A stretch of 64,000 bases of DNA, taken from Moniliella sp. 'wahieum'. Taxonomy: Eukaryota. This document shows positions 3,056 to 62,264 of this stretch, piece after piece. Every line of letters begins with the position of its first letter. Positions within the stretch are counted from its first letter, which is position 1. The stretch lies in the NCBI GenBank assembly GCA_003971905.1, contig RSEE01000026.1, forward strand, positions 186,001 through 250,000, read 5' to 3'. The notes under the pieces are model-generated. The model made no database searches, had not been told where the DNA came from, and saw only the letters and a list, made by a program, of their open reading frames with translations. The position numbers and the translations under genes were made by a program.

Positions 3056-6000
3056 AATGAATGACGGAGAGTTGAAAAACTTTTCTCAATAGGGAAGGAG
3101 GGGGGAGGGTGCACCTCAACAAGCCTTTGGTGGTAGGTCGACTGAATGAGCCGTAAGGGGAAGCGCAGCAGGGAGGTGAGGGTAAGAAGAAAAGGAAGCG
3201 CCAGTGGATAGGCAATGGTGCCGTTTTATACTTCGCTCCTGGGAGGAAAAAATCGACATCCCCCCCCGAGAGGACGCAAGAGAGGCTGGATTCCTGCTGC
3301 ATGGCTGCCCTGTGTATGCGGCCATGCCACCTGTCACCGGTCACCGGTGACCTGCGGGCACAGGCGTGTGTGACATGTGACACACAAATGCGCCCCACGG
3401 GGGCCGCGACTGTCATCGACCGAGAAACATCAGCGCTTGACTGCGGACGGGGGAGGCTGGGGTACTGGGGGATCGTAGAGAACCCCCCAGTTGCTCTCCA
3501 GCCTCTCCAGACACAACCCTGGCTTCCTGCCCCTCGTGCCCCAGGATGTTCCCATTATAACCGGTAACCAACCTGCGCGCCAACATGGAACTGTAAAACG
3601 CGTATAACCGCGGCGTAATACTAACCAGAGCAATCATGTCCAGCTCAGGTACATCAACACTCCCAATAGGTACCATCCAATATAGAGCCACTCAAGAGGT
3701 CTGGGTCAAAGTGACGGGAGTCAAATATGTGTTGGCCCCGCTCAGGCACTACCGACGTATTTCTGGTCACTTCACCTCGCAACTCTCCCCTGTCACAGCT
3801 GGCTAGCCCTCTATCCCGTGTGGCCACGAGAGTTAGTTGGATTGTCTTACTCAGTCCGCCAACTTACCAATGATGATCCTCTTCAAGTGAATGATCGATG
3901 ATCGACGAGGTCCCTGTGACCTGCCTCGCCTCAGGCCCTCAGGCCCTGAGGCCTCACTCCGGTAACCTGAGGTCTAAAGCACTCGCGTCCGAAGGAAGCC
4001 GTTTCCCCACCATCCACATGCCTCAGGCGTCAACGTCTCAACACCCCCCCATCATACATCATGCATCAATCATCGACTACAACATCCCACCGAGGGCAGG
4101 TGGTCCTGGTCACGCGCACTATCCAACTAGCCACATCTTTGTGTGCTAGTCCCCTCGTCACCGTCATCGCTTGATAGACCCTCAGCGCCTTGGCAGAGCT
4201 TGACGCGTATGGCCCAAGGCCCAAGCGCTGTTGAATATTCGTCGCCCTGTGCCCCCCCCCCCACACCAAGGATCCAAGTGCTCCCCATCTCTCTGACCAA
4301 TGATTTCGACGATCCTGCTAGTGATGATTAACGCATAATTTAATGAGTGCTCGCCGATCTTGGACCGACCCCAGAATATACATACACGCGCGCGTGTCAA
4401 GTTCAGGCACTCTCTCCAGAGCCTCGGAACCCCTCTACATGCACTGTGGATTGAATATTGAGCATCAGATCTCAGATCTCAGACCAAAGAGAATATATCT
4501 GTCCACCACGGCCATCCACCTCGAATTGGAAAGCCTTGCAAAGGTCATCTTCCGGAACAATGTGTACATGCGCACATGAAGGTTGTACTCACAACTATCA
4601 TCAGGAGGATATAGTATACCTTCCTTCTTCCCTTGTTGATTGTTCGCGATATCCATCAGAGGAGAGAAGACCCGATGTAAGCCTGTAACGGGGGAACAAC
4701 AGCCAGACCCTAAGAATGAGATCTCATGGTGCTGGAGAAGAGTACAGCAGCTGTCTGAACCAATCCGAAGGCAAACCAAGGCCAGCCCCCCATCGATAAT
4801 GCATAATTGCATGATGAGACTACATTGCTACCCCCATCACACTTCCACCGCTTTCATGCTGCAAGCCTCTCCGTCGCATTCACATGCCATTGGTCAGCGG
4901 CCTGTCTCATCATGCATCAGCGCACAGCGCTCGCGCTCGCATGTCACCGGTGACTCGCACCTGTCAAACTGTCAAGCTGTCAAGCTTCCGTTCGTCCGAG
5001 ACGCGTGTCACTGGTCACGCGTCACTAATCACCGATCACCGTGCCCCCCGCGGACCACACAGTCTCACTTTCTCCGCATATTCCAATTCTTCTTGGTTTT
5101 GCCAGATCTCCATCTCACGCGTCACGCGTCACAGTGTAACACTTTTTAATTGGTCCGGATGTATTGTTTCAACCTCTACTAACTAGTAGCTAGTAACTCT
5201 ACCAACTCTAGTGCTTAGTACCTCGTACTACCCAACGGTCTGCACCATCTATCCTATGTTAGTCTGATACATCCTGTACCTTTTGGACAGTTCTCGCGCG
5301 CTCGCATGTCATATGTCACGCGTCTCACAGCGCTTAATTGGGGGCGATTGGCACTTTGTACTTATTACATTACCGCCGGTTACCGGTTACCCGCTACCTG
5401 TTACCAGTTACCGGTTACAAGCCTCAGGCTCAGGCTCAGGCCCTCCTCAGGCCTCAGGGGCCTCAGGCTTTCAGGCTCATCCAGGCGTAGGACTCATGCA
5501 TGAGTCATTACCCCGTTCACATCCGCGCGGAACTTCGCATCACTGCTTGGTCCGCACAGAGGTCTACTTGTGGACTGAGCCTCAGTACTGAGCCATTTGG
5601 CTGCACCATGTGGAAAGACCGGAAGAACCCAAGGGGTTGGGCGCTGAACCTCTGGAAATGTAGAGCAAGCAATCGCGGTGGTGGTGGTGGTTGGGTCTAA
5701 GCCTTATGCCACACCTAGAGGAGGCAGGGGTTCAAACAAGCCTGAGTATATATATACGTGGAGGCTTCGGAGGTCGAATAAGGGGCAAAGGGCGATAAGG
5801 CCGCGCCTTGATTGCCTATGTAGGGGACCGCCCGTCCCAACACAGTGCGACATGCGACAGAGATCGAGGGTACCTATAAAATGTACCGACGAGCCTTTCG
5901 TTCTCGATCAGGTATCCTGGGGCGACTTGCGCGAGTATGTTGATGAGTTCCTGAGATGCATAGTGCATGGGGCATGGGGCACGATGCATGATGCATGATC

Positions 6001-6803
6001 GGTGATCGATGATCCGCGGCGGTCTTTCTTCTTCGCGGTGACCGGTGACCGGACCGGTGCGAACGGTGGAATGTCGTTGAGCAATGCGTCGGAGGTCTGA
6101 GGGCTTGAGACTTGACATGTGACATCTGAGTGGACTGAGATCTGAGAAGGCCAGCGGCGTGCCTAAGACAACGCTATGTGAGATCTGAGATCCGAGAGCA
6201 CCACACCAATGTTGCCATTTGAAGAAACACCCTTCTTATTTGTGTGCATTCCATTGACAGAGCTTAAGGCTGGGACAGGGGGAACGCTACGTCTAAACCG
6301 AACCGTTCATCTTGCGGGGGTTACTTGGATATAAGCGTGTACAGTGACATCGTGTGTGGGGCCATGTGTACCACATATGCGTTCCCAACACACGCATATG
6401 GGAAGGTCTTTCGGCGTATACGAAAGACAGACACATACTCTCTATCCCCTTCGTCGTCAGTTGTGGCCCCATGTGATGCCCTTTTCTCTTCATTTTCAGT
6501 ATAACACAACAGAGCTGCTACTGTTGTTAGAGTGTGCATGGGGCGAAGTGACGACACCAAACACTTATTGGCATGTTCTTGGTTCTCTATCGGCCCAGTT
6601 CCTTGTAACATGTAAGCGGAACTGCTTGCTGTGTTTCTCAACCAGCGCGCCTCAATATTGAATCCAGAGAGCGTCGCGTCTCGTCCCCCTTCTTTGCCTC
6701 CGTGCTGCACTCAAAAATGATTGGATGGGTAAATTGTTTGAGTTGGATGTGCGATAATCGATGAGCAAAGCCATTCCTACAAAAGACATGCCGGTCCGGA
6801 AGC

Positions 6804-6910
6804 GACACTTTAGGGCAGTGGTTACCCCGTTCGCCTGCTATATGAAGCACCTTGCTACAAGGGCCAGCGAATCCTCTCTGAGGGCGTGAGTTCGAATCTC
6901 ACAGGTGTCG
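6804..6910 (+). tRNA. tRNA-Ser(GCT) with a 25-nt canonical-position intron (6841-6865)
   Basis: Acceptor stem GACACTT/AGGTGTC plus discriminator G. D-arm GGGCAGTGGTTACCC. Anticodon stem TTCGC/GCGAA with loop CT-GCT-A[intron]A. Long variable arm CCTC-TCT-GAGG. T-arm GTGAG-TTCGAAT-CTCAC. T-run terminator just downstream. Confidence 0.95.
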
Positions 6911-7618
6911 AATTCTTTTTCTGCTCCTCGGCTTGATATTTTACTTTTGCCTTCGTTCTGTGCGGGCTACAATTTGAGGTTAGTAGGTCATCTACTAAAC
7001 GTACTAAACACCAGCCATGTCCAAAACATTATTTACTGTTGCAAGAGGGAAAGACTATAGAGGGGGAACATCTCCCACTTAGCAGGCAGGAAATGGAAGA
7101 GTCTTGGAGCAGGAAAAACCATAATGAAAGGTGAGCTCTCTGCCGTCAGCCAGGAACGAAGGGAACGATGAAGAAAAGAGATCGACTTGGAGCGAGAACA
7201 GGACGCGCAGAACAGAGCTTCGATCCCTTTGACACAGAGCTTCGATCCCTTTATTGGTGTGTAAAAGGTTCAAGTAGAAATAAATCAAAGAGCATGGGCA
7301 CCAACAAAAAGCGACTCACCGGCCACCTTTTACTCGGGCATACAACTGGGACTTAATCTATGTCCTACTTAAACGGGAACATGCCCCGTTTAGACGCAAC
7401 ACATGGGTTGCTCGGAGAAGAGCCAACCCGGTCATGATGATGTAGACAGAACCGACGCTAGGGAGACACGGGGAGTGCGTGGGATCACCCCGGCTCGCAA
7501 CAAACAGAGTGGTTGAGTTGAGAGCTGTCCTGTGATCTACTAATCAATACCCCGTCTGCACAACCACGTTCATGTCATCCTCCAGTAGCTCCATATATAC
7601 AGTATCCGCCCCCAAACA

Positions 7619-9057
7619 TCAATTTGCTGTACCAGGGCGATGAGCGAGCGTTTGTTGGACTCGTTGTAATTCCACCAAAAGCTCATCCAAGCTCCCTTGT
7701 AACGTCGCTTCGTCGTCTTCGCGGTGCTCTTCCTTAGCCTGACGTAGGAATGTAAACAGCTGAACCGCCTGCTCTGACAACGTAGCGAGCAGCAGTTGAT
7801 TTTCCTCGTCGGGCAGGGACTCTGCTGCTCCGCTGGACCAATGCGCTGTAGTGAAGATGGGGGGGGCGGAACTGTACGGCCCAAGAGGGACATATGTTTT
7901 TCGATGAAAAGCTCTGCGCGGCGGGAAATCGCTCTGCAGATCCGTTGGCTGTCTGGAGAGGTAGGACAGAGGTGCCGGAGGAGTTGTTGGTACTGATCCC
8001 GGTAGAGTCGGAGCTGGGTGGTAAAATACGCCGGGTCTGTGTCTGTTTCTCCAGGTCCCGAAGCCGCATCAATGGGCGAGGGAGTCAATGGGCAGTCTTG
8101 AATGAGAAGGAGTATTTCTGCCTCGAGACGGAGGAGGGAAGCATGGGTGCCCACCCACTCTGGTGTAGGGGGTGAAGAATGGGTGTACACTTCGTCCCGA
8201 CACGTGGTGCAAAGACGCCCTCCCTCTAGTGTGGGAGATAGTGAGTCAAGACTAACCACCCGGGAGCACTCCTGCCCACCACACACGCACTTTCCACACA
8301 GGCGGCAGTGGTGTCGTCTCCAAAGAAACGTGAATGTGGTGGAACAGAGTGCACACCGTTGGGCCTCCACCGAGGCATCGGGCACCCAACGTACAATGCT
8401 CATCTCCCCTTGACGAAGAGATGCGCCACCAGCATGGAGGGCGCGCAGCTTGTCCCATCGCCGCAAGATGCGTTGGGTCTGCAGTAGCTCCATACGTCGT
8501 TCCGGGCATGCGAGGACAACATTGCGCGCAGCTACAAAAGTGCTGGTCAGGTCCCTCTGCACTCCCGGACCAGGTGGTAGGAGTGTGACCGGAGACGGAG
8601 GGGGTGGGGAGGATAGACGCCTAATGCGAGTTGGCGGGCGCTCACCGTTGGCGGTGTCCTTCTGCACGCGCACAAAAGGAGTAGAGAAGGAGCGCGAATG
8701 ATGGGGGACACGCTGATGTGGGGAGTGGTGGAACGAGCTGGGGGAGAGGTCGGTCCACGACTGTTGGCCCTGAAGTATGGACGGGAGAGGGATATCGTCA
8801 CTGTCACTCCGCCGTGGGGGGAGGAATGTGCATAGCGCGTGGGTGGTCGGGGAGGGAGAGGATCAAAGCGGGGCAGACTTCGCAGGCTAGGGAATTCGTC
8901 GAACTGGGAAGAAGAAGTGATAGAGCGGGTGGACGAGGGGGAGGAGCCCCACGTGTTGAACTGGAACGGCGACTCAACTTCGTCCTTTTCCTCGTGAGCA
9001 GGAGCCTGCACAACTGGTTGGGGTGCAAAAGAAGGATCAACCATAGGAGCAGGAGCA

Positions 9058-9089
<32 letters not shown>

Positions 9090-9099
9090 ATCCGGAGCC

Positions 9100-9178
<79 letters not shown>

Positions 9179-14165: not shown

Positions 14166-14179
14166 TAGGGTTAGGGTTA
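14166..14179. promoter_or_regulatory. Interstitial telomere-like motif TAGGGTTAGGGTTA (telo-box-like) upstream of the Git1-like gene
   Basis: 14-nt perfect match to (TTAGGG)n, about 80-170 nt upstream of the candidate start codons. A regulatory role is inferred. Confidence 0.4.
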
Positions 14180-15809
14180 CGTGGAGCACAACTACGCCGC
14201 CCCGCACGGTGCCAGCCAGCGGGCCTGCAATTTCATCGGGCGCTGCCTGGTTCCGCCAGCTCGCGCTCTGCTGCTCGGCCGATCGTCTGCCTGTCAGCAC
14301 CGCATCCATCTCAGGCCAGGTGCGCCCGCCTGGGGCCTCCGAGGGCCTCCCGAGGCCTCCTGAGGCCAGAAGCAGAGCGCCTGGCGTGCCTCAGGAAAGC
14401 TCCTGTGCCCAGCGTTGGAGTGCAGGGTGAGCCTCAAGCCAGCGGTCTCTGCCGCCCGTCCTACCATGGCAATGGGGCTATATTCTCTGCTCACACGCGC
14501 GTGCTCATATATAGATGTGCATTGTTGTGTCTGCCCGCCTCCCCAATCGCCTTCAGCTTCTTGTTGAGGTTGCACACCTTCTTTCCCAGCGAGTTTTAAA
14601 ACGAGCCTCAGATGTCGGCTATAATGCCCGCTGCGGCAGCCGACGCTGCTGGGGGGGACCAGGCATGGTCTTTCTCCGGACGCTGAGCCCGGAATGTCGT
14701 AGACATCTCATTCAAACACGCGTCAGTCAGGTTAGATAGCGAGAGAGAGAGAGCGGACACCTTATCGATTATCCATGCTGCGGATATCGTCCGCGGCCCG
14801 GCATGGTCGCATCGACTCATCGGTGCGATGCTTTGTGCCCATCGCCCCCAGTCTTGACAGAACTCTTTCGCCTCTACGCCCGCTCGGTTTAACGTTCAAC
14901 TATAGGATCTGAAGCAGGACCGAACGTACGTGGCTCCGATCGGCGGTCCAAGGGGTTGTACCCCTAAACTGCAGGGGGGAATCCCACCTCAGGACTCCCC
15001 TCATGATGCATGACAGCCCCGCAGCATAACAAAAAAGGACAAGCCTTCGTACGATGACAAAATACATTTCCTACGACTTAGGTGGCTCTCAAGGTTCTTC
15101 CTCGTCAACGTTTTTAGACCCCCCCTCTTCAGTAAGCGTGCATCTCGGTTCAGAAAGCGCAGTGAACCACTACTTTGTTGGGATCTCACGAGGGGAAGAA
15201 AGCCCGTCCATGTGAATACCAGCCACACTTGCTCCCGTGGTATCCTTTTCGGCGGGTGTCCACCGCGGAATGTCAGCGACCAGTGGCAAGTTTGGTTATC
15301 GTCGTCGTCGCCATCGTCTTGTATACAATCTCTGGTCCCTGTTTGGCCTCTGTCTACGTCTGACGGACGATCAGAACCATTTTCAATGCATCTCTTTTCC
15401 ATCCCGGGTGGACGTCGAACTTACATTAACGGCTGATCCCTTTCTTGTATCGTACAGCTTCAATTAGCCCCAGGGGAGGAGGCGGGAGGAGGGATGGGGC
15501 TGACGTAACGAGGGCCGTCCGCGAGGTCCGTGGAGAGGGCAGGCGCAGGCACAGCGGTGCCTGGCGTTGCCGGGCGTGTGCGCAGGCTGCCCCCCGCGGC
15601 TGCTGCAATGTTCAAGGGCGGCTGAACGTTCAACCTCCGTCCCACCTGCCTGCACACACGCTCTGTACCGCCCGGGCCCAACGTTCAACGTTCAACCCGA
15701 ACCCTGCACGCCAGGCCCATCGAGCGCATTGGCCCTGCGCAGCTCCAACCAAAGCACTCCGCCGCCAGCCAGCCCCATCGCCAGCCCCATTGCCCCCATC
15801 CCGCCCGCC

Positions 15810-30100: not shown

Positions 30101-31315
30101 TAGCGTGGCAGGAGTGGTACGACCACGGTCCCCGCGGTGATAGGGCGGCCCATGTGGCGGATGGAATGGCCACGGGGGCTGGTCGTCGTACTCAGCGGCG
30201 CAGCAGAGCGGGAACGGTCGTCATCATACGCCAAGTGGGGCCGAGGAGCGAGCGGCGAATGGGGCGAGCCGCGTCCTGCCCCAACGTCGAAAGCGCCTCG
30301 ACAGCAATGCGAGACTGTCTTTGCTGTCGGCAGAGCCCAAGGCGTAGGCGGGGGGCGGGGCATAGTGGCCTCTGTCCATGGGTGGCATGCCGCGGGAGCG
30401 CCAGCTCTCCCTGGACGGGGGGGGGGGTGAAAGCGTCAGTGTACCTGCCCCAAGCCTGCGCCCAAGGGTGCGGCGGAGGGAAAGGAGGATTGGATACGTA
30501 CGTAGTTGCTCGGTCGTCGAGCCGGGGCCGTTTTTGGCGGTGCAAGTCGGGTGGCGACGGGTACTGTCGTTGTGGGGTGGGCCCAGCATCCGACACAAAG
30601 GGGGGGCGGGGAACAGGGGCGCCCCAGGGTGCGCGTGGAGGCCAGTCCCGGTTCCCTTCCACGCCCGGCAGGAGTTGGCCGTGGGCGAGGCGGCGCGGCG
30701 GTGGCGACGCGAGTGGGTGTGGCTGACGGCCGCTCCAGGATGCGAACGGTGGTGGCCGCGCGATCCTGTGGCTGCGACCGAGGGCAGAGGCGGTGTCGGC
30801 GTGGGAGCCGACCCAAACACGGGCACCGGGGCGGCCGTGGCCGCCACCAGCGGCGGAAGCGGCAGCAAAGTGGCGGCATGGGACGAGTGTTGGACGGCGG
30901 GGTGCAGGAGCGCAGGCCCTCGGGGGTGGGGATGGGGATGGGGATCGGCACGGGCGCTGCGGGGGGTTAGCGGGGGCGGCGGCAGTGGAGGGGGGCGCGG
31001 CGCGGCGGCGGGAGGCGGGGCGGGTGCCGAGGCGGGGGTCGTACTCGCACACGAGGTTGGGGTGGGCGCGCAGCGCGAGCACTGGGGCTGGACGCGGTCG
31101 CACTTGCGCTTGGCGGAGAGGCAGGGCAGACACGACTTGGGGATGCGGACGCGGCGGCGACGGGGCGGCGTGGGACGTGCTGGCCGTCGTCGTCGGTGAG
31201 GGCTCTGGTCGGGGTCGTGTTGGTCGTGTTGGTCGTGTTCGTCGTCGTGTGGGAGAAGGTGTCGGGGTGGGGTGTTCGGTGGCGGGGGCGGGGGCGCTGT
31301 GCCCGCAGCAGGCAT
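27177..31315 (-). CDS. Zn(II)2Cys6 transcription factor with a fungal-specific TF (middle homology) domain
   Basis: RVRIPKSCLPCLSAKRKCDRVQPQCSRC..CEY. Middle region YFVTDRFLSATYQALRLCSFLSAPTLQTIHAQLLVGLYL and RRTLWWAIVLQDAQLSAIYGRPLAI. Heavily frameshifted, ends approximate. Confidence 0.85.
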
Positions 31316-32358
31316 GGTGGGCGGCGGGGGGCGGGGGGAGGCGGTGGGGGGGGGGGAGGAGGCGCCATGCGGCGTTTGGCGTTCGGCGTTTGGCGTTCGG
31401 CGTTCGGCTGGCTTAGCGCAGAGGCAGGAGGGGTGGCCGTTAGATCTTAGAGGCGGCAAAAGGGGCTCGGCCGGTGCTGCCGTGGGCTGAGCACTGCTGG
31501 CGCGTCTCAGAACGCAGAGACGCCACGAGCGGCTCTGGAAGCAGCCTGGCTGAGATCGAGGCGTCTCATCCGTCATCCGTCAGCCTCATCCCTCTCGTCC
31601 CAGAAGCCCCGCCTGGCTCCATCCATGATGAATGATGAATCATTGTGCTTCCGGCCCGGCCTCCTCTTGCACGGCCAGTCTCGCCCGCCTCGCTGGCCCT
31701 GGCTGGCCCGGCGGCAGCACCCACCCGCCGGCTAAAACCCCTCCCTTCGCCCGGCGGTTTGCTGGCCCCGTGCTACCCCGGGAGCCCAGCGCCCCTGGGC
31801 CCGGAGGCGCACCCCGCCAGTGTCCCTCGGCTCGTTGCCCAGCACCCCACTGCGCCCCCCGCTGCCCCTCTTTCTCCGCCTCCCCTGCACGGCGCCACAC
31901 GCCGACATGCCCTGGACCCCTGCGCTTGGGCGGTGTTGTCGGCTGATTTTACGTCACATCTCACATCTCACATCTCGCATCTCACGCCTATCACATCTCA
32001 CACGTGACGATACATCAAGATTCAATTGCATCCGTATTCCAGGCTGGAGCTCGGCTCTGCTCGCCTCTGTTCGGCTCTGCTCGGGCTGGATCTTATTCGC
32101 CACAGGATGCATGACGCGGCGTGGGGATGCATGACGGGGACGCTCGTGCGTGTCGTGCATCGCCTCTGAGACTGCCCGGAACATTCGTGCAGTTGGCAAT
32201 GTTTCAAGTTGGGTGCTGAGATGGTGATGATCAGTCAATGCGGCGCGGCCTGACTGGGCTGGGCAGGGCAGCGTAACCCCCGTCGCAAGACCCAATCTCC
32301 TGCCTACCTCCATCTGCTTGACGACGGGAGTGCGAATCCACATCCATCCATTCCAAGT

Positions 32359-34590: not shown

Positions 34591-35305
34591 GTCGGGAAGG
34601 GGTAGCGGAGGCGGGAAGCTGGACGGGTTGCGGCGGCTGACTCGACGCGGTTGGAGTTGGACGCGGCGAGGGGCCACGAGGCATGCCAGCGAGGAAAATT
34701 GGGTTGATAAGGGCGGAATAGCGGCGTGGCCGCAGCAAAGGTGCGCCTCTGGCGCAGTTCTGCATCGCGCGCCGTTCCGCCCCGTTGGGGTGCGCGGCGG
34801 GGGCGGCGGCGCAGCGTGTGTTCGAGCCGCGCTAGCACCAGACCCAAAACAAGCATGGGCGAGACGCAAGGGGCTGTGCTGGATTAGGTAAGCGCGCCCC
34901 CTGCAGAGTAGAGTCTACGGTGGTAATCGAGGGGCGTGGCGCAGTGCACGGGTGTGGAGAGAGTGACGCGTGACGCGTGAAGCGTGCAGCGAAGGAGGGC
35001 GGCGTGGCGCAGCACAGCGCGGCAGCCGTGCTGCTGGGCCGCTGCGGGCCCCCCATCGGCCGCCGCCAGCCGCTGCCCGACGCGCCGCAAGGCGCACACG
35101 CAACACGACCTCGCTTGTGCCAACCAGCCGTCTTGGTGCGCCGGAGCCCCGCCCGTGCTTGCTCCCCTGCTCCGCTCCACGAGCATCGCCTGTGCCGCGC
35201 GATGGCCGCCGCAGCTGCTGCGCTTGCCCCCTGCTCCCCCGCCCTGTCCCGCTCCCCGCCTCCCGCGCGGCCAGCCGAGCTGCCTGCGCCGATGAGTGGT
35301 GCGCA

Positions 35306-45598: not shown

Positions 45599-48500
45599 AG
45601 TGTGGGTGTGAAGTAGCTGTGCGGAGGAAGAAGGATGTTGGTGGTTGAAGTGAAGCTTCGACGTCCAAGATCTAGGCGACCGGCTCTGTGGACTCAATGA
45701 AACCAAGGACGGAAGCCGGTCCGGCTTTCCGGTGCTATCGCATGAAGTTAACTGGTCGTCACGCGTCACGCGTCAGAATTGAAACGTGACAAGAGTTCAT
45801 TAATATTTCCCCGTGCTCCTGTTGTCGATTTCTGATCGCGTTGATTGACTCTTTTTTATCTCTGTCTTCTTCTCACTTCACAACTCTCATAACATTTACA
45901 GAGCTCAAGACAGGACGAAGATCGTCCGGCTCGCCTCTCACCGCATGGAAGCGCAGCAGGTGGCAAATATTGGACTCAGTAATGTACCGTAAGACAGTAG
46001 AAGGCGTCGAAAGATAATGCTGTCAAACTGTTGTGTGTTTCTGTGTGCAGTGCTGGACACATGTCTCTCTCCAGCACAGCTGACGCACCTTTTTGTATAA
46101 TACCAGAGCTACACATTCCTGGCAACAAAATCGTCATATTGCCCATGCAGGTGCCCAAGTCCTTTTGGGCACCTCCTCCTAATCAAGTCCCGGTCCTCTG
46201 TGTTCAAAACACTTGCGCAAGTCGAGGGCCACAGAGGCCCAAACTTCTTCAAAGCCGGCTGCACTGCAACTTGGAAAAGGAAAAGAATGGAGCAAGTGGG
46301 TCTCCCTATACGCCTTCCTTCTGCCAACAGGACGCCTTTTTTCTCCTTAAGTTCCCATCATCCGAAAAAGCCCAAACTTGAGTGGGAGGGCACCACATGC
46401 ATCCACCGTCCTCAAACAAGGTGTGTGGGTTGGAAGCGACGGAGCGGGGTGCCAGTATGGATGGAGCAACGTATTACACGTTTTTGTCGCCTGTGAGTGG
46501 GGGGGAAGGGGAACAAGGGCGACACTTCCTTCTCGGGGGGTCAAGGGGGACTAAATACTCTATTGAAGCGCTGCGCATTCGAGGCTATACACCATTCTTC
46601 CCTATGTTTGTCATGACGACCCCTGGGTATTAGTTATGCCAACACGTAAGTTCCCAAAAGGATAAGTTTGAGTCCTGCAAGGAATTTACTCAAGAGTCTC
46701 AAAGTGGAGACGGTTCATCGAGGCTCACTGCATGTCACCCTGCGCTTATTCGTATCCACTTGCGCTACATCCAGTTTGGAAGCGAATGGCGGGTGTCATA
46801 GGGTCAAAGCCCGGTGCCAACACCATATTAGCCTTCGCTTGCTTAGGTTGGCACAAGCAACACACGCCAGTAATGTGATCTATGAGCCTCGCAGGCGCAG
46901 CGTTTCTTTGTTGTTGTTCCTGTCTTTTATACTATAAGCGTTACAAAAAAGCTATGAACACAGAAGTTTTGATGACACAAAGAATACCCGGAGTAATATA
47001 CCCTCGTGACGTTTTCATTGTCGGGAGGAATGAGGGGTCTTGGGACGGTCTCTGTCAGTGATTCTTGACGCAGCCAATGCAGCTCCTTTTCCCTCGGCGT
47101 TCCAGAGTTGTGCGGACCTCTACTTCATGTACCACACTCCTACCCGATTGTACCCCTCCCTCGTCCCACAAAATGATCTATATATGCTTCTGGGATATAT
47201 CTACATGTAAAGCTTCTATATTCTCTCGCATCACACCGTTTCTTACCTAGTTCGTATGCTTGATCATATCCCCTCGCCACTTTTCCTTTCTTCCTTCACA
47301 AACCGTCAAATTGCGAAAAGGCGTTGGTCGGGCCGGAGGTAAGCAACCCCGAAGAAACGTTGCTGTGTGGGCAGCCTATATGCTCATCGGTGTTTAGTTT
47401 TCCTTCCCTGGTCTTTCCAGTCCGCCTCTCTGGATAGGAACTATATACATGGTCAAAAAGCTACAGAATCGCAATGTAACGGTGCCGTTCTTTTGCATGC
47501 CTATATGGGATGGATATCCCACAAAGGTGGGGTTTTCATGCCTCTTCTCGAACTTGACGAGTAGATATTGAGTGTGTTCGTACCTGTCGCGGACGAAGAC
47601 GGGACCACGACATGTCCGCTTTTGTGGGCCTACGCGTCGTCCTTGTCTTTTTCCTCTCCCTCCGAACCGTGGCCGATCAGCAGGCTAGTACCCCTTCCCA
47701 GTTCGGGAACCAAACCGAGCTCGCTCTCAACCCCAACATTCTTGTGTCCGATGTCTAAATGATAGTCGTCGACTCTACACAGGTCCAGGGCGACGAGACA
47801 GTCGCACCTTTTGCTTGTTTATATTTTCTTCCTTCTCACATTTTGTCTCCCCACACTGATGGGGACGGAGCGCAGCTGTTCCTTTTGTTTTCTTGTTTTC
47901 CGTCGGATAACAGTCCCCCTAGTGGTTGCGACTACTTCCCAATCCCTTATTTTTTCCTTTCTCCCCCTCTATTGCACTGTTTCCACTTTGCCTCTGCCTG
48001 TATTACGCAATAATCGTGGTTGTGGTGCCTCGCCAGGCTTTGTAAATACATATTGTAGAGAGGCAACTCTTTCTCAACCGCTCTTGCAGGTTCCCTTCTG
48101 CTCTCCACCGTTTTCTCTTCTCAGAGGTACCCCTCTCTCAGGTCCGGTTTATCAGCCGCCAAGTTCCTGGCTCTCCGTAGTGCAGCTCTCCCATCAATCC
48201 CTATTAGGCTCCCCAGATCTTTCAATCCATGCTTCAGTCTCCGCTCCCGCTTTGATCTTAGCCAGGACAGTTTGTTCTCCTCCGCCTCTCTCTTCCTCAC
48301 CTTGAGTCCCAGGGGTTTCAGACATGTAACTGGCAGTGTCCAACTGCCGTTGCCTATGTATATACGAATCTTTGCTACAGAAACAGCCGCTTCTCCTATA
48401 CGCTGATCACAGAGGTGTCTTCTTATCCCTGACCCCGCTCGGAGCCACCAACAAACCCACAAAAGTACGATCATCGCGTCGTCAGTCGACCCTTCCGCGA

Positions 48501-50822
48501 CCTCCAAGGGACTTTACTCCTGAATTCCGCTAGCGCCCCCCCCCCCTCAAGTTGGGACCTGCCCTTGACAGCATCTCAGTTTTACACCCGTGTGGCCAAG
48601 ACCTGTTTGAATCCTCCAGCGTTTTCACGCTTCAACATCCTCACAGCGTGCACACCACCAACACGTACGGCAATGTATGTCTTGTATTAAGGCTGAAACC
48701 CTGTCTGGGTCTTTGCTCTTCACACTCCTCCTGCTCTTTTTCATCGCCCTTTTGATATATATCCTGTGTCCACACGGATGCTTCTGCGGATGCTTTGGTG
48801 ATGCGCCTGCGTGCGCATCGATGTTCACAGTATAACGTACCACCGCACCCAGGAACCGTTTTCCCTTTGGTTTTTGACGACGCGAGGATACTATGCCACC
48901 AAGAGAGCGGGCAAGATGGTGGGGATCCGGAAGGAATTAATTACTGAGTCTCAATGGAGGGTGGTTGGTTACCGGTTATGGCACTAGTATACTGCTACCC
49001 ATCTCTGTCTGCGTGGCACCTCAATATCAGGAAACATGCTACACGCGGATCGAGGTTATAGCAGCTCTCTGAGGTTATATTGGGCCTATTTTTGACGCTT
49101 TTGAAGCTTGACCTTCCGTTAAACTAGGCGTAATGAGTGGGGGCTCAGGTAAGACTCCGACTCCGAAGAGAGAGGAGAGACCAGGCTATATCACAGCAGA
49201 GGCTACCCAAAGAAGAGGGGAGGGCACCGACTGGTCATCGAGGTCATCCACATCGGCCGGCAACCTTCAACCTTCAAGCTTCAAGCTTCAAGCTTCACTA
49301 GTCACTAGCTTCAAGGTCAAGCTGTTAAGAGTTAAGATCTAAGACGATCAAGCTTGTTCAAGCTATTGCTATAGGCGCAACAAGCTACAAGCTTCAAGTT
49401 TTCAACCTAGCTTCACATGTCACATGTGCTTTTCACGCGCCTCTCGCTTTGCAAACGTTGCTTTTTACAGTCACCAATACGAGTCGCTAGTCATTAGCTA
49501 GTCACTTGCTTCGACGCGTTCTGGCATGTGGCATGTGGCACGTCCACGTATCACGTGGGTGACATTCGACCGTCACATGTGACATGTGACAGCACCTGAC
49601 AAGGGACAAGGCCTCCACAGTGACGCCGTGACGTAGCGACGTGACGCGTATCCGCGTACGCGCGCGTTGGTGTGGTATGTGGCAGGGAGAAGGGCACCAC
49701 TACCAATGGCGGAGATCGGTATGGCCGTGCGGATGCCAACGCGCCAACGATCGACCAGGCATCGTGATGCAGATGCATGACCATCATGATGCATGACCAT
49801 CGGTGGTCGATGAGGCAATGAGGCGATGAGGTATTGCATATTGAAGCAGCGCTGAGCCGCCGAGCCGCAAAGCGCGAAGCTTGTGAAGCGTGATGCATGT
49901 CACGCTTGAACGCGGCTAGGCGCCAGGCTGGAGGCAGTGTGCCAGCGAATATCCAAGATCTCAGATCGAGGGCGCCTTGCCTTGTCAGCATGTCAGCCCC
50001 TCAGCGCCGCAGCGCCTGAGCGCCTCAGTTCGGAGATTTGCTATTCGGACCCGTCAGCGCGTCAGCGCGCCAGGCCGGCTCGGCGTCACGCGTCACGCCG
50101 TCACGGGGTCAACGGATGCTAGTTGGCATGTGTCCTCCCGTTTCCTGCCAAAAGTAACTGGCCTGTCCATGTAGTTAGTCGATGAGTCACTCTGACATGC
50201 ATGATGCATGACATAGGTATCGAGAGGAAGAAGCGATTCGGTTTATTACGGTGGTGATTTCGATAGCCTTTTCGGCCCCGGTCAGGCGTTCAGGCCGGTC
50301 ACTAGAAGCCACTTGTTACAGCTACTACTACAGTTGAACCCCATACCAGACACCAAGGGATATAGCATTCCATGTAGTACAGAGGCAGCGAGCCACAAGC
50401 ATCCCTCCAGCGACCTGAGCTCAGGCGCTCAAGTTGGGGCACCCCAGGATGCATTGCAACCTCAGTTTGGCTCAGGACAACCGACGCGGTTCCCATCCAA
50501 CCTGCACAAACTGCTGTAAGAGATGTGACGCATGTGACGGGCGAAGCAGATGGGATGGCGCAGAGCGCAGACAGCGTGCCAAGGAAAGGGAAGGGGTATG
50601 ATGGCCTGCACCCTGAGTGGAAGGGGGGGGGGGGCAAGCGCAGAAGAAAGGATGACTCGAATGACACCAGCAGACAAAGAGAGATGATGCAGACCCGTTC
50701 AATTTCGGGCCAACGCCCCCGTTCTTGGGTAGGTTAAAGCCCAAGTCGGGGGCGCAGCTATGCACTTGAGAGAAGGAGCCGAGAAAAGAAAGTGGAAAGC
50801 AAAAGTGAACTGTGCTTCTCCG

Positions 50823-52694: not shown

Positions 52695-55600
52695 AGCTAC
52701 TAGCGGGGAAGCCGACTGTCAGATCTGAGTCTCAGATCTCAGCGACGCAAGCCAAGGATTAATTAGGCTTGCCGCGTACCGATTGCCGCTTGGGCTTAGG
52801 GTCTAGGCCCGTCTAGGCCCCGGCTATCCTGCGGAAGCAGCCTGCGTCGGCGCGGCCTAATGCACGTATGCGCCCAAGCAAACCCAAGCTAGCCATACTG
52901 TGATTGGAACGGGGTTCGGCTGAGGCTATCGGCCAGCACTGGGCTGCTGCCCGGCGCTGGTGCCGGTGAAATGTCATCGGGTGAAGCAGGGTGGACCAGG
53001 GTGCTGGGGTGCGAGAGAGTCGACATGCGATGGCGTTTTTGCCTGCGTATGCAGACCGGGTGTGTGTGAACAGGTGCCGACGGAGTGTACAGGGGCGCGA
53101 GTGCGCTCGCAGCAGGACGGGCCAGGACGGACCACTGGCGGACGCGGGAATGGGAATGGGCGCGGCGTCTGCGTGCGCTGGGGTGCCCAGCAGGAGCGCG
53201 CCCGAAACCGAGGGAGGAGACTGCTGCAGAGCGTAATATTTCACATCAATCCTTTCGTCCAGCAGTGCCGCGCTGCAGCGCCCCGTGGAAGGCTTGCTCG
53301 GGCCAGATGACATGATACGTTCATGCATCATGCATGCATCGACCACGCCCAGCCAGCCACGCCACAGGCGCAGCAGGTGCCACGTGCAACCCCGTGCAGC
53401 GCAGGGCGCCAGGGCACACCAGCTCACCGGTCGCTCAGCGGTAATCGGTTACCAGTATCCGGTAACCAGGACGACATTGGACGAAAGCGGACTAATGATG
53501 CATGACGCGTGACGCATGTGCATGATTCCTGATTGCGGGCACAGGCCTAGTCTCGCGCACCAACACTGGTCTGCCGCCAATGCAAGTCGACAGCCTAGCA
53601 TTGATGAATTTGATGCACCTGCCGCAATCACGCACTGGTGCAGTGCGTACTGAGTACTGAGTCTCAGTGATCGAGCGCAACTGATCTCAGTGTGTTGAAA
53701 CGTTGGTACACTCGTACTCGCTGAACTCATGCATGATGGTCCGACTGGCAGTCTGGGCGACTCGGCGCGCGCGGGAAGGTTGAAGCGCGCAGGATAGCGA
53801 AGGAGATCGGCCGTAGCAACGCCGCAGCCTGCGGTAGCTTGCATCCCACCCCCCCCTCCCCTGCAGCCTGCTTTGCCATTAACCACCAGTCATTACGTAA
53901 CTACATAACGCGTAACCGATAACCTAGGGTCTATGCCTAAACGTAGTCCCTCCCGCTTTCTCAGCGCGCTGAGCCGCTGTACGTTCAGCTGAACGTACTG
54001 AACCCTCAGCGCTCACTGAACTCGGTCGGTGGCCGCCCGGGGGGTAGGAGCAGGGCGGAGCTGACGCGCTGACGGAGCAACGTTGAGCTTGAGGCGTTGA
54101 ACGTGTTGAACGTTAGCCAAGGCCTCAGGCCCTTTCTTAAGACCAGGATGCACAGCTCCACAGTCACCGGTCACGCGGGTCGCGCGTTCACGCGTCACGT
54201 TCAGAAGGTAACCGGTAAGAGGTAAGAGGTAAGACAGCGCTTGAAGCTTGAAGCATTATACATTAGGCCTTAGGCCTTAGGCCCAAGCGTCTAAGCGCTA
54301 AGCCTTACTAGGCCTTAGGCCTTCAAAATTTAAGAAAGGCCTGACATATATCGCGCTGTATCTGCTGTATCTCAGACGCTCTATCAGGCCTGGGCCTCAC
54401 GACTCAGGCTGAGCACTCAGGCTGAGTACGCTGAGTGAGCACGTTAAGCGTTAAACTTAACGCTGAGCCGCTGAGCTTCCGCGCTGAGCCGGCCCGACCC
54501 CTCCAACGTGTGGAAACCTGACACAGCGCGCACCTACTTCTGACATGGGTATGCTATAAGAACCCGTTGGCATTTTTTCACGCTGTATACCGTTCTCTCG
54601 CCTCGACAGGACGTACTCCCATCACATTTTTGTGCGATGGACGAGCGTCCACAGGCGTCCACACCCTGTGTTCCATGCTGAGCAAGTGTGTATAATAGCG
54701 CCGCACAAGCCGAATGCAAATGAGAAAGACACTCCAGTCTCTACTGCTACTAGACTACTAGTATACAAACACCGCGGAGAATGCACGGGAGAGATTGAGA
54801 AGGAGTATCGAGTATAAATCAAGCAGGGGGGGGGATACAGCTGGCGCTGGGGCACGTATACAAATGGTGTTGCCACAAAAGAAGAAATCCGTTAGGATGT
54901 ATGTAATAGGTCAAAGCCAGTGACTGAAGAAACCTATAACTAACCACACCTTTTGCGATACAGGTTCGTGTCGAAACCAGCATCTCCCACAGCTGTGAAC
55001 AGCCTCCGAGCCCCCGTATGTGTGGGGTGATGGTGTGTGTGAGTGGGGGGGAAGAGAATAGTATATCGACCACAGGACTGCATGGACGGGTTACCCTTAC
55101 GCGTAGCTCACACAACGTTTGTGAGCAGCTTCCAATTCGGTCAGCGTATTGGCAACACAACTCTCATTCATTGCCCCCCCCCCCAATACGCTCCTCTCTC
55201 ATGATACGGGTACAGAGTGTAACGGGGTTACTGGCTTTCCAGGCCGAGACCTTCCCTGCCCATCGCAAACAAGACTCTTCACGGAGGACTGAACGCGTTT
55301 CTGATGCAAAGTCCAAGGAACACTGGCGTGATCGTACGAGGGTCGCGAGTAGTGCTTTGCTGTTCGGCGGGCAGAGCCAGGCGGCGTCCGCAGGGGGAGG
55401 TTGCACCTTAAGGGCCGGACGAGAAAGCGGGGAGCTTCGATGGGCGAGGGAGGGCAAACGAGCGGATCGGGAAGATGATTCTGCTACAGTGGAGTTCGAC
55501 TAGAAGAAGGGTGAGGGGAAAAGAGAATGATGGGCGGCTTGGGCCAATACAATTGGATCAAAGAACAGGCGGGTTTTATATAAGAGAAAGGGAACAAAGG

Positions 55601-58667: not shown

Positions 58668-60065
58668 GGTGTGTGGGGGGAGGGGGTCGTGTGGGCGGGC
58701 CGCGGGAGCGCAATTCGGCGGTGGCGTAGGCGGGAACAATCCTGCTTTCGGCCCGAGGCCTAAGGCCAGCCGCCGCCGCCAAGCATCCAATACTCCGGCT
58801 CCCAAATGCCGCCCAGGCCGCCATACACGCCGCTGACGTAAGGCGTCCTCCGCCCTCGGAGGCGCTGCTCCCCGCCTGCTCCCGTCACCACGTGACTGCC
58901 TCCATCCGCTTGCCTCCGCTCTTCATACGGCCCTCTGTAACTCGCCCCCCCCCCGCTCCTCATAGGCACGCCCATCGCTCCAGCCTTGCCGTGCGATGTA
59001 GCCTTGCGCCCCGCCGCTGCGACACAGATCCGAAAAGCATCCCACCGTTGCTAACCCCGTCATGCTTGAGGAGTGGATTTGTTGCCCAGCATCAAGCCGT
59101 GAGGATGGCAACGCGAGGCCAAAGACGGAATCCGATTCGCAACCCCCTGCACGTTTCTTGGTTCACCAGGCACAGCCCCAGGAGATCCGACACCTGCGAG
59201 GCGGCAATATAAGTCGTAGATGCACTAGCTGGGGCGGAGGTGGGAGCCACGCAAGGCTGAGGCTCACGCTGCCTGGGACGGGAGGGGGACGGGACATTGA
59301 ACCTCTGAAGTCCGGACTCGCCAAGTTATTGTCAGCGTCTGGAGAGGGTACCAACCGCCGCTACTGTTCGATGAGTGGCAGCTTGAGCATGCGGCTTTCC
59401 TGCTCAGTGCGCGAAAGGGACTTGCGCTGCTTCCTACCTAACAAGGATGATTCGAATGAAAATTCCCTCTCGGCCTTGGCCGAGGCGTGTCAGTGACCCG
59501 TTCTGACTCGCTCCCCATTCCACCCAAGCCGTCCCTAGTACCAATCTTGCCTGCACGAGCAGCCGCGTTTGCACAGCATGCCAACACGCTTCCCTGTGTT
59601 GTTGCCGAGTCGACTGGACAGCTTGGCTGTGGATATGGACTCAAGATTCAATATTCAGCCAGTCCAAGTCAGTGGTACCACATCGGTGCAATCAGAGTAC
59701 CAGGTTGGGTTAGCAGCGTTGCTGTGCATCATCCCATGCTCAATGCTGCACCCTGTGTCCACTTTATCAGCTGCAAACCCACTACGGAGACTGGTGGGCT
59801 CAGCTGAGCGCTGAGCGCTGACACTACATATGTTGATAGCTACCTCACGCGTCACGCCATAAACGATGAGACCACGGTGCATACCGCATCGCTGCTGAAA
59901 GCCAATGATATTTGTACAAGAGGGCACCCGCGTGTAGCCACAAAGCGATGGCCTGGGTAAGAAGATTTTGGGGTAGATGCCCTCCTCCCTTCCCCCCCGG
60001 CGCACAGCAGCACATTTGAAGAGCAGGGCGCATGACCAAGTGGGAACGGAGACAGTAAGGCGTCT

Positions 60066-60879
60066 CTAACCGACAAAGCGGAAGCTGTCGGCGCGGATGA
60101 ACATTTGTCCGGCGAGTAAGAGCTGGGCTGGTGGTGGCGTCAGCCCCGCAGCTGACGGGTAGGTCGCCGCGGGGGTGAGCGCAACAGAGACATTGACACC
60201 GCCATCGGACTGACCAGGAACCAAGACAAAGTTTTGGCTAAAGGCGCGGGGGAGGGAGTCAATCGGAGCATCGCCATAGTCATTGGCTCCATTGCGCTTG
60301 TTCCGCTTATTGCCCTGGACGGAGCGAGGTGCATTCGTGTCGGTCAAGGTGGTGACTGATCCAGGGGCGTGGTGTGTTACCACCCGGTCACTGTCAGCAC
60401 GAGTGTGGGAAGTGTAATGGCGCCTGCAATCAAGCTGCGTTGTCAGTCCCATCCTGCCTGGGCGCACGCGAAGAGGAAAGAGAAGTGAACATACCGGTGC
60501 TGTTGACTCCTCCATGGACTGGATGGCAGTCAAAGCCGAGGACCTCGTGTTTGGTCGCTGGCATTTGCGACAGGAGATGTGCCAAGGCGTCAGAACCTTG
60601 GAAGGCATTGCCATTCCAAGATAGCGTGCTATCCGGCAAGTATAGTGTTGGCAGGAGCTGTTTCGCCAAAGAACATGGAAAAAATAGGAGAAAAAAGACG
60701 GTTGGCGCCTGGTCAATCGATACATGGTTATGGACGAGAACGTACGTTGCTGCGTAAAGGTGCGTCCGAGGCAGAATAGTAGGCACTGACAAAAGTCTCG
60801 GCGGCCTTGACGGCAAACTCAATCATGGACTGCTGCTCCATCCAAGCGCAGAGGTGTTGTTGGAACCGGCGGGCGCCAT
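60066..60879 (-). CDS. NXT1: NTF2-like mRNA export cofactor Nxt1/p15 (Mtr2-like)
   Basis: AAETFVSAYYSASD, LYLPDSTLSWNGN..MPATKHEVLGFDCHPV, PRAFSQNFVL, FIRADSFRFVG-stop. Two probable introns. Confidence 0.82.
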
Positions 60880-62264
60880 TGTGGGTTGAGGTTGCCGTTT
60901 AGGGGAGGGAGTAGTAGCTCTCTCCCGTCGCTTTTCTGGTGGGGGTAGGGGGCAGCTGCTGCTTGAAGGGATGATGCTAAGGATCCAAAACCCAAACAAA
61001 ACTTGTGAGCTAGATGAGCCTTTTGATTCCGCTCCATGGTCAGCGGAATGCGATTAGCGGTGTACAATGTTCAAATGCCTGTGGTGCTGCAACGCGGTCG
61101 AACCACTAAGAGTTGCCGGTGTCTGTGGCGTGGAACGGTGATCCGGTGACCGGTGACCGGTGACCAGTCCAGATACACTATCGGACATTAGTGACTGGAC
61201 TAGTGAGCTAGTGAGGGAGGGCTCACCGGTCACCGGTCGCCGGCCTCACCGCGCTCAGCCTGAGCGCTCAGGTTGAGCGAGCACGCGGCTCAGACAGGCT
61301 CAGATCTTGAAGCTTAAAGCCTGAAACTCTTTGAAGCTTCAAGCTTCACTGATGCATGATGAAGCTCGCGGACATATGCCTTTCCAAAGCCAAGCTTCAA
61401 GCTTCAAGCTTCAACGTTCAACGCGTTCAACAGCTTTGCCAGGAAACGCGTGAGGAAATGGAGCAGATGAATTGGATACATCTATGGACACACTGGAGGT
61501 AATACTACCTCAGAAGGAAGCTAGGGGGAACATTCGAGAGGTGGACACAGGATCTCCCAACTGATGAGAATCATGCTATAGTGCCTATACGGGCCTAGTG
61601 GACCAAGGCCCCCTTAGCATGGCGTGAGCCTGACAGGCTTCTACACTCGCAGTAACTCAGTAATACTCAACTCAAAAGACAAGAGGGTGGGAGTTACGCT
61701 TTAAAACATTATATAAGCTAGCAACATCCGAGGCCGCACGTTATGGCCACCGGGGCGGGGGCAGATGCTGGACGAAGCGGGGGTGGGGCAGAGTGCGACT
61801 GGCACCGGGGCGGGCGCTCTGGGTTTACAAGCACTGTGACTTGAAGCTGTTGATGGTACGTTGATGGTCCGTCTGGCGGCTGCTGGTGGGTCGGACGGAG
61901 TGTGTGCATAGGAGATTAGCGCTTAGCATTCCAGCACCGCGGCCGAAAATGGTGGTGCGCCTGAGCTCAGGATTGAGGCTGGGTCAGGGTGGGCACTGGG
62001 GCAGTGCCCGGTGGCCCCCCATTCGAGGCGAGAGAGTGGATCGATGGTTGACTGAATGGGGAAAATGATTAATCGATTAATGACGCCTGCATGGATGATA
62101 TCATCTGACGCGTAATTACGCATTGGCCGCAGACACCGAGGAGGCATCGGCATCGGCCATCTCCACTCGGCACTACTCAACACTACTTCTGCTCCCACCA
62201 GCGCCGCACACCCACACTTGGTCTGCTCGCGCCTCGGCTGCTCTCTTCGCCGCTCGTCTGGCTA

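Follow-up and report, generated by a model that had tools for sequence, protein, structure and literature searches.

What kind of process leaves tandem heptamers of many different sequences, all in one common register, between the genes of a fungus? The question is raised by a 64,000-nt window of DNA (57.9% G+C; positions 186,001 to 250,000 of contig RSEE01000026.1, Moniliella sp. 'wahieum'; coordinates below are those of the window), for which a sequence-only reading had pointed to intergenic arrays of palindromic A....T hexamers, each followed by a single spacer nucleotide. The heptamer pattern was confirmed as real and far beyond chance. Its elementary object was found to be a 7-bp direct duplication centred on T-n-A (in the following: TnA), and the arrays are, on balance, probably the excision scars of a transposon that were later amplified; the transposon itself is what we infer from them. 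The fixed 7-bp duplication, the TnA centre, the joint bases of the palindromic (P) nucleotide type and the non-coding location can be read directly from the sequence.

Period-7 arrays and their elementary object

Each of the 16 array ranges quoted in the sequence-only reading contained exactly the sequence assigned to it. Perfect tandem arrays of at least two copies numbered 93, 57, 53, 8, 9 and 3 at the periods 5, 6, 7, 8, 9 and 10, respectively; period 7 thus lies far above periods 8–10. In 30 of the 53 period-7 arrays the unit was a rotation of a palindromic hexamer plus one nucleotide, and all 30 hexamers were of the A..T type, i.e. begin with A and end with T (by chance 0.109 of heptamers would have such a palindromic form, a quarter of those being A..T; binomial P=7e-16 for 30/53). 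These 30 arrays comprised 12 different hexamers, with C, G and T as spacer in 15, 12 and 3 cases, respectively. Arrays reached up to 3.7 perfect or approximately six imperfect copies and showed decay through point mutation.

Pairs of one palindromic hexamer H in tandem were also counted by the length k of their spacer (H-n{k}-H). At k=1, 21 pairs of the A..T class and none of the C..G, G..C and T..A classes were present, and at k=0 and k=2–6 there was at most one pair per hexamer class; the mean for A..T pairs at k=1 in 100 block-wise dinucleotide shuffles was 0.04. The sharp peak at a spacer of one nucleotide, restricted to A..T hexamers, is what the earlier reading had anticipated, and its proposed recurrence of T-n-A every 7 bp was likewise borne out by the number of lag-7 pairs (expected numbers in brackets): 51 for TCA (12.4), 44 for TGA (15.5), 13 for TTA (1.3) and 13 for TAA (1.8).

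For external comparison, 47 eukaryotic metagenome loci (331,060 nt) were taken that had been found by a scan with the HSF protein; with a best identity of 37–56% over the HSF DNA-binding domain they include no close relative and are composition-imperfect controls. These loci contained 94 period-7 arrays, nine of them with a palindromic hexamer unit and none of the A..T type. Their lack of A..T bias (0 of 9 palindromic arrays) and the strict A..T/TnA rule of the window (30 of 30 arrays, none in the other three classes) argue against ordinary heptanucleotide microsatellites, i.e. slippage with palindromic units favoured via hairpins. We regard such an origin as very improbable, although the array sizes (3.7 perfect, about 6 imperfect copies), the decay by point mutation, a whole-unit growth that preserves the observed register, and the dominance of C/G-centred units in long arrays, as a stability effect predicts, would all agree with it. 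The preference for C or G at the spacer held for the long arrays (27/30) and did not extend to the single-copy objects (C/G 9, A/T 8, n=17; Fisher P=0.009 for 27/30 versus 9/17). As the C/G excess is confined to long arrays, a further process, e.g. slippage, may have contributed to their growth in dependence on stability.

The hexamer plus 1-nt spacer, which the earlier reading had taken as the primitive unit, did not prove to be primitive: the underlying object is the TnA-centred 7-bp direct duplication, and the A..T hexamer arises at its joint. In the window, A..T palindromic hexamers were present 285 times versus 180 expected (order-3 Markov model), an excess of 105, and the other three classes amounted to 0.81–1.03 of expectation; the excess was accounted for by 92 A..T hexamers that lie within a TnA...TnA frame (T two bases upstream, A two bases downstream). 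Seen from the frame, T-n-A pairs at a distance of 4 nt enclosed a palindromic core in 92 of 202 cases (12.6 expected), compared with 7/105 for A-n-T, 20/407 for C-n-G and 20/437 for G-n-C, and cores of 2, 6, 8 and 10 nt between T-n-A pairs revealed no comparable palindrome effect. The middle base n was identical on both sides in 70 of the 92 TnA-core-TnA objects, which marks the object as a direct TnA repeat rather than a longer palindrome. Among the isolated same-n objects (n=42) a flank match was present in all, i.e. none stopped at the 10-mer, and 21 had exactly two extra in-register bases, both on the same side or split one and one. In consequence, the palindromic core was copied from the flank and not from the ends of an element.

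The latter point is decisive for PIF/Harbinger or CACTA elements, which might have left a 3-bp TnA duplication around a 4-bp core made of the terminal dinucleotides of their inverted ends. TnA is the kind of target duplication reported for PIF/Harbinger, the same n flanks the core in 70/92 objects, and a core from inverted termini would automatically be palindromic; however, the core was always flank-matched (0/42 isolated same-n objects without match), 13 different cores would require many families, and non-palindromic TnA-centred 7-mers were duplicated as a whole. Such a parent is contradicted by the flank-matched cores and by a duplication of the whole 7 bp instead of 3 bp, and is regarded as highly improbable.

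Sorted by matched length k, the period-7 runs on the A..T lattice numbered 19, 8, 25, 6, 5, 6 and 6 for k=3 to k=9; at k=5 the other three hexamer classes had 3, 4 and 1 runs versus the 25 of the A..T lattice. The discrete 12-nt object is TnAxy y'x' TnAxy or its mirror y'x'TnA xy y'x'TnA (primes marking complementary bases), and the two mirror products were about equally frequent (8 and 9). Of all k=5 runs, 17/25 started exactly at T or 2 nt before T (7.1 expected, P=5e-5), and the long runs with k=12 or 19 lay in the predicted registers in 4 of 4 cases. When the 12-mer was counted on both strands as two copies of a 5-mer W with the reverse complement of its last two bases between them, there were 80 occurrences for W beginning with T-n-A and 0–4 for each of the 15 other anchor classes (position 1, position 3); the TnA count in 60 shuffles had a mean of 0.25 and a maximum of 1. 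No TnA-class 12-mer was present in the control loci with a G+C content of at least 0.49 (124,923 nt), in line with a lineage-specific feature, and the 23 of the AT-rich controls stood alongside 42 of A-n-A and 32 of T-n-T type, i.e. represent low-complexity noise.

TnA was found in 25 of 41 period-7 repeats versus 1 of 17 period-5 repeats; owing to the missing enrichment at period 5, the step of 7 is to be seen as fixed and not as "5 plus variable filler". The duplication carries T at position 3 and A at position 5, i.e. a strand-symmetric target preference, and the palindromic hexamer A x y y' x' T fits a product of the joint whose A and T would stem from the TnA of the two copies. As the source of objects that are 12–26 nt in length, far below read length, and that obey a strand-symmetric biochemical rule in many different sequences, an assembly or sequencing artefact is hardly credible.

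Joint bases and the proposed excision mechanism

An independent test was offered by 7-mers with TnA at positions 3–5 that are repeated with a spacer and thus lie off the period-7 lattice, many of them being non-palindromic. TnA-centred 7-mers were repeated after 0, 1, 2, 3 and 4 nt in 24, 9, 7, 1 and 1 cases, respectively: As in an excision footprint, two direct copies of a duplication of fixed length are present at the site. All 1-nt spacers (9 of 9) were complementary to a terminal base of the 7-mer, either the last or the first, and all 2-nt spacers (7 of 7) were reverse-complementary to its last two bases, to its first two, or to one of each. In the 11 other centre classes taken together, P-consistent spacers were present in 11/26 (1 nt) and 5/63 (2 nt) cases, with Fisher P=0.004 and 7e-7, respectively, for the difference from TnA. 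Among register-fixed runs (with mismatching flanks), a P-consistent single nucleotide was found in 5/5 runs with central TnA (one with TnA at offsets 2 and 3) versus 0/3 with TnA elsewhere. The centre base of the second TnA was the same in 80 cases, the complement in 8 and another base in 5; the 80 identical bases indicate that the putative hairpin is blunt.

These P-type spacers (16/16 in the period-8 and period-9 objects) are a further argument against microsatellites, which would also leave the discrete 12-nt founder class and in-phase chains of unrelated cores unexplained. Slippage is contradicted as the sole cause and survives only as a possible step of array growth.

Further repeats in the same stretches may be noted. 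Several of the period-8 arrays at 3929-3953, 4961-4986, 49993-50028 and 50052-50073 resolve as a TnA-centred 7-mer plus one P nucleotide, and others, e.g. 49810-49831, do not fit this scheme. Perfect palindromes of 14 nt (53960-53973) and 20 nt (53979-53998), both with TCA/TGA, stand among the scars and could be scars with long P tracts. The 13-nt tandem units at 54402-54426 and 61251-61279 consist of inverted TCAG/CTGA halves; they share the TnA anchor, and the simple 7-bp scheme is insufficient for them.

According to the reading favoured here, a cut-and-paste DNA transposon, or a few related ones, would integrate with a 7-bp stagger at nnTnAnn. Its excision would leave both flanks as blunt hairpins, each ending in one copy of a b T n A x y, and host enzymes would open these hairpins by a nick placed a few bases 3' of the tip (usually +2 or +3), whereby the terminal bases would become P nucleotides (as T pairs with A, the offsets 2 and 3 cannot be told apart; an offset of 4–5 would complement the centre base). 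After direct ligation of one strand the site would read a b T n A x y + y' x' + T n A x y; it would be longer by 7 bp net, and its joint would hold a newly formed palindromic hexamer, A x y y' x' T. The dominant product would thus be the left copy plus two P nucleotides plus the right copy minus two; less often, both full copies would be retained with 0, 1 or 2 P nucleotides, resulting in the periods 7, 8 and 9. At the second TnA site of a scar, which then stands in an odd-palindromic context, a repeat visit or replication slippage might add whole 7-bp units with the register kept, and arrays would be formed; the 19- and 26-nt arrays at 4465, 45757, 49272 and 59803 match such whole-unit growth. 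A visit resolved from the other side would leave a different palindromic core in the same register. In-phase chains with different cores are indeed present (AAGCTT followed by ACTAGT units, 49272-49308; TGCA followed by CGCG cores, 53496-53520); they are predicted by the scar model, and slippage alone cannot make them.

The combination of a fixed-length duplication, a strand-symmetric target and reverse-complementary joint bases makes a cut-and-paste element with flank hairpins the best-supported reading. An almost absolute need for TnA and an invariable 7-bp step point towards a sequence-specific enzyme, i.e. a transposase, and not towards generic template switching, which has no reason to demand T and A at positions 3 and 5 (80 versus 0–4) or to keep a step of 7. 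Of the proposal made earlier, the mutational origin, the TnA anchor and the involvement of a fold-back step are thus supported (80 versus 0–4; reverse-complementary joint bases in 9/9 and 7/7), and generic template switching does not fit the TnA rule and the fixed 7-bp step. From these features we infer the transposase cuts, the hairpin intermediate and the family responsible; as a best guess, the parent element would be Kyakuja/KDZ-, MULE- or hAT7-like.

Four other geometries were considered and rejected. A hairpin model with arbitrary hexamers (H-s-revcomp(H)) is confronted with only 19 long odd palindromes centred on TSA (S being C or G), approximately as many as the H-n-H arrays (21), which argues against a large hidden population of non-palindromic cases. 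A hAT-type 8-bp duplication with 1-nt offset hairpins would predict T....A hexamers or a complemented centre base, in contrast to the observed 80 identical and 8 complementary bases. A 5-bp duplication with two P nucleotides (Transib-like) would place TnA asymmetrically in the duplication, and period-5 TnA repeats were not enriched (1/17). Finally, a 4-bp stagger of the topoisomerase II type at A^NNNN T would give 4-bp and not 7-bp duplications.

The main rival of the excision scars is a transposon-independent enzyme or replication process of equal geometry: a host enzyme that nicks or breaks DNA at T-n-A (a domesticated transposase or a site-specific nuclease), or replication template switching that leaves a direct copy of 7 bp together with a short inverted one. 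The sequence rules demand only a 7-bp staggered TnA event and a fold-back, not a mobile element; neither an element nor a transposase was found in the window, and the very high scar density would be easier to obtain with a resident enzyme acting repeatedly in open chromatin. However, we know of no enzyme beyond transposases and integrases that yields fixed-length staggered duplications, and simple cleavage without integration yields no duplication. A process of this kind is therefore considered unlikely.

Several observations weigh against a transposon as the source of the scars. All evidence comes from this single window, and the five "non-coding patches" (15.3 kb) referred to below were drawn post hoc from the lag-7 profile. 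Within the 64 kb there was no resident element flanked by a 7-bp nnTnAnn duplication, the search for 7-, 8-, 9- and 3-bp duplications with inverted termini yielding chance-level matches plus one 9-bp case, and a Pfam scan of 118 open reading frames (ORFs) of the window revealed a transposase domain in none. The 62 length-compensated and 16 spacer-bearing junctions lie mostly within approximately 15 kb of non-coding DNA; if most of the array units were not supplied by slippage, insertion and excision would have to be very frequent, or strongly focused on hot spots, to account for this density. The dominance of the length-compensated product would be explained only by supposing equal nick offsets and single-strand ligation, and the C/G excess at the centre of long arrays (27/30) in comparison with the unbiased single scars (9/17) has no explanation in the scar model. 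As the centre base was the same in 80 and complementary in 8 cases, a hAT7 parent would need atypical cleavage. Lastly, the accessible text of PMC12730594 and its supplement, which gives element consensus sequences only, does not state a target consensus for hAT7 or Kyakuja.

The 9-bp case concerns the perfect direct repeat CACCTGTCA at 3328-3336 and 4958-4966, which brackets a 1,621-bp segment whose inner ends form inverted repeats of approximately 80% over 25–27 nt. A non-autonomous element of MULE type, with 9 bp duplicated, is one candidate for the segment (3328-4966). However, both of its ends are palindromic ACCGGT-type scar sequence, the right copy lying in an 8-mer array, and the arrangement may have arisen by chance.

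Location of the arrays and its meaning

The window carries fungal genes with introns, among them those for a sugar transporter, FYVE and MUN/C2 proteins, kinases and a leucyl-tRNA ligase fragment, and further Zn2Cys6, a DIL-domain myosin tail, TBC, ERV46, HSF and a PPP5-type phosphatase (Pfam/ORF scan). The closest named matches of ERV46 were from the basidiomycetes Tilletiaria, Atractiella, Phenoliferia and Ceraceosorus (51–60% identity); the MUN protein had only 35% identity to Agaricales proteins. By these matches the organism is a basidiomycete, and no named entry of the collections searched is closely related to it. Non-coding or intergenic status was judged from ORF and Pfam evidence. 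Pfam-supported ORFs cover 15,851 nt (24.8% of the window) and contained 0 of the 62 unique junctions; on this evidence the placement between genes that had been made by eye is upheld. The lag-7 signal was concentrated in stretches without coding periodicity (approximately 3–7, 31.4–32, 49–50.6, 53–54.5, 59.6–59.9 and 61.1–61.9 kb), and the patches contained 57/62 junctions, a figure that is descriptive only as they were delimited post hoc. The arrays and putative scars (in short: scars) are distributed as follows.

3333..6192: non-coding patch A with ten perfect palindromic-heptamer arrays, starting at 3333, 3369, 3891, 4465, 5115, 5376, 5445, 5983, 6036 and 6179
3558-3569, 4057-4068, 4450-4461, 4908-4919, 6003-6014: examples of single 12-nt scars in patch A
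6994..7009: example of a non-palindromic scar, a TnA-centred 7-mer, two P nucleotides (reverse complement of its first two bases) and the same 7-mer
14762..15696: two 12-mers (14762-14773, 15002-15013) and one AACGTT+c array (15679-15696), scattered and not part of the dense patches
31440..31976: patch upstream of the Zn2Cys6 gene with a 12-nt scar at 31440-31451
31566-31582, 31625-31640, 31954-31976: non-palindromic period-7 arrays with TnA in the patch upstream of the Zn2Cys6 gene
34963..34980: isolated ACGCGT+g array of 2.6 copies
45757..45775: 19-nt array of ACGCGT+c units with a matched length of 12 and start phase 5
49233..50539: non-coding patch B downstream of the HSF gene, arrays at 49413, 49575, 50083 and 50197
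49261-49308: in-phase chain of patch B with AACCTT, AAGCTT (x3.7) and ACTAGT units
49233, 49983, 50052, 50091, 50524: scars of patch B consisting of 7-mer, P nucleotide and 7-mer
52721..54480: non-coding patch C upstream of the HSF gene, arrays at 53321, 53647, 54239, 54263 and 54309
53496-53520: heterogeneous in-phase chain of patch C, which also has spacer-bearing scars at 54060, 54096, 54421 and 54462
59646..59860: scar at 59646-59657, AGCGCT+g array at 59803-59821 (19 nt, predicted register) and scar at 59843-59856
61143..61927: non-coding patch D, a divergent promoter region, with an ACCGGT+g array at 61143 and an ACCGGT+c array at 61223
61334, 61391: AAGCTT+c arrays of patch D, followed by an AACGTT+c array at 61410; scars at 61350 and 61916
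62067..62081: non-palindromic scar given as an example, in which one P nucleotide separates two copies of a TnA-centred 7-mer

In patch A the lag-7 identity was 0.29–0.35 per kb compared with approximately 0.25 elsewhere, and none of its 14 ORFs of at least 90 aa had a Pfam match. The scars at 14762..15696, which represent three of the five junctions outside the patches, are located between the MUN/C2 gene and a kinase-like gene. Upstream of the Zn2Cys6 gene, TnA-centred 7-mers are directly repeated without spacer at 31627 and 31959. The ACGCGT+c array at 45757..45775 starts two nucleotides ahead of T, and its last base is the A of TnA, i.e. it lies in the register predicted by the scar model.

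Non-coding DNA is not uniformly affected: approximately 3 kb at 45700-49000, without Pfam-supported ORFs and with a lower G+C content (0.49–0.53), are almost scar-free, unlike the adjacent patch at 49.2–50.5 kb, and scar density is therefore patchy within non-coding DNA. Two further kinds of simple sequence were seen in the window. At 9045-9178, in overlapping long ORFs beside the FYVE gene, there is a 22-copy hexamer array (AGGAGC and variants, 95% matches), which is probably a coding low-complexity repeat unrelated to the heptamer scars. In addition, seven homopolymer runs of G or C with a length of 10–12 nt, mostly non-coding, are located at 4252-4262, 30417-30427, 31346-31356, 48536-48546, 50623-50634, 55174-55184 and 58945-58954.

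The position of the arrays in promoter-like non-coding patches would suit a functional platform, i.e. a chromatin, origin, boundary or transcription protein that reads DNA shape or dyad symmetry, and single cores coincide with known motifs (ACGCGT presumably being the MluI cell-cycle box). However, 12–13 cores are interchangeable, the arrays are visibly decaying, and the joint bases are set by their neighbouring bases, i.e. by a repair rule that a binding model does not predict. The shape-read platform envisaged in the sequence-only reading found no support for these reasons (free cores, decay by point mutation, joint bases following the repair rule), and there is little probability left for any functional platform. 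The statement of that reading that the arrays do not represent one transcription factor motif stands, with 12 hexamers in the arrays and 13 cores in the single objects.

If the arrays are excision scars, transposon traffic may have written a visible share of the promoter DNA of this fungus. A more far-reaching claim is put forward tentatively: An undescribed, very active flank-hairpin transposase, mobile or domesticated, might act in a basidiomycete lineage on an almost absolute nnTnAnn target, its scars making up several percent of the promoter-proximal DNA and seeding palindromic heptamer microsatellites. Should this be true, new cis-regulatory sequence in that lineage would come mainly from transposon traffic instead of point mutation or slippage, and the scars would record base by base how the fungus opens and joins DNA hairpins. 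Under the scar reading as such, the intergenic "grammar" would reduce to two rules, the target and hairpin repair. With dozens of scars per 10 kb, such DNA would be an unusually clean natural excision archive, which would reveal without experiment the consensus of the target, the offset of hairpin opening (mostly +2/+3) and the end-joining preference of the host. Excision scars could seed microsatellite-like arrays, and restriction-site-like palindromic hexamers could arise de novo in promoters, whereby regulatory sequence would be turned over along a concrete route; in addition, the target specificity of a family with 7-bp duplications (Kyakuja/KDZ-, MULE- or hAT7-like) would be predicted.

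Comparison with known transposon systems

Full-text searches brought up no account of fungal palindromic heptamer arrays or of heptamer scars centred on TnA; the suggested parallel to intergenic heptamers of Ustilago maydis gave no match in a full-text search.

Canonical hAT elements have an 8-bp duplication with the consensus nTnnnnAn. Membership of the putative parent in this group (Ac/hobo/Hermes type) was rejected on duplication length (7 bp), the T3/A5 consensus and the palindrome centre. According to the accessible part of PMC5873905, the Ac/Ds donor sites in yeasts (S. cerevisiae, C. albicans) carry deletions as well as inserted palindromic P nucleotides that were explained by hairpin resolution, the hairpin model of Coen et al. 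1986 being cited for these footprints; the centre of the palindromes is the complement of the base that adjoins the element (canonical hAT, 1-nt offset hairpin), and their arms reach up to 20 nt in budding yeast. The likeness to the Ac/Ds footprints of plants and these yeasts consists in both copies of the target duplication staying at the donor site and in a process that operates in fungi. In contrast to Ac/Ds, the duplication in the window comprises 7 instead of 8 bp, the target is nnTnAnn and not nTnnnnAn, the palindromes are not centred on a complemented base (same 80, complement 8), and the scars, which are natural and fixed, reach an extreme density and form stacked arrays.

RAG and Transib form coding-end hairpins with P nucleotides, and their duplications have 5 bp in contrast to the 7 bp in the window. 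Short template-switch mutations, which Loytynoja and Goldman reportedly described in 2017, are said to make short perfect inverted repeats beside their source in a single event; the inverted copy beside its source is shared with the window, whereas a fixed 7-bp duplication and a sequence anchor would not be expected there. Micro- and minisatellites resemble the arrays in their head-to-tail short units, variable copy number and decay by substitution, and differ in that the units of the window appear to be dictated by a TnA target rule and a P-nucleotide repair rule.

In the accessible text of PMC5499845, flank hairpins on excision are documented for hAT, Transib/RAG and the MULE Muta1, the hairpins of the latter being blunt and comprising both whole strands (43+43 nt); Muta1 has 8–9 bp duplications, and its excision was precise in more than 90% of the yeast events. 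A blunt full-strand flank hairpin is what the identical centre bases of the window require, and its opening by host enzymes is likewise shared with the proposed scheme. Unlike Muta1, with its 8–9 bp duplications and mostly precise excision, the window exhibits 7 bp and scars.

Families with 7-bp target-site duplications in Basidiomycota are, as far as covered by the accessible text of Kojima 2025 (PMC12730594), hAT7 from Pucciniales, with CAACGG/CAGCG-type ends, and Kyakuja (KDZ) from Laccaria, Auricularia and others, with CA..TG ends without inverted repeats; KDZ elements of Cryptococcus duplicate 8 bp, as given in the part of PMC11343200 available. The organism of the window is close neither to Pucciniales, the source of hAT7, nor to Agaricomycotina, the source of Kyakuja. 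A 7-bp duplication in a basidiomycete host (as judged from the ERV46 matches) is found in the window as well, and the putative parent would share with hAT7 and Kyakuja the phylum, the cut-and-paste class and the 7-bp target-site duplication.

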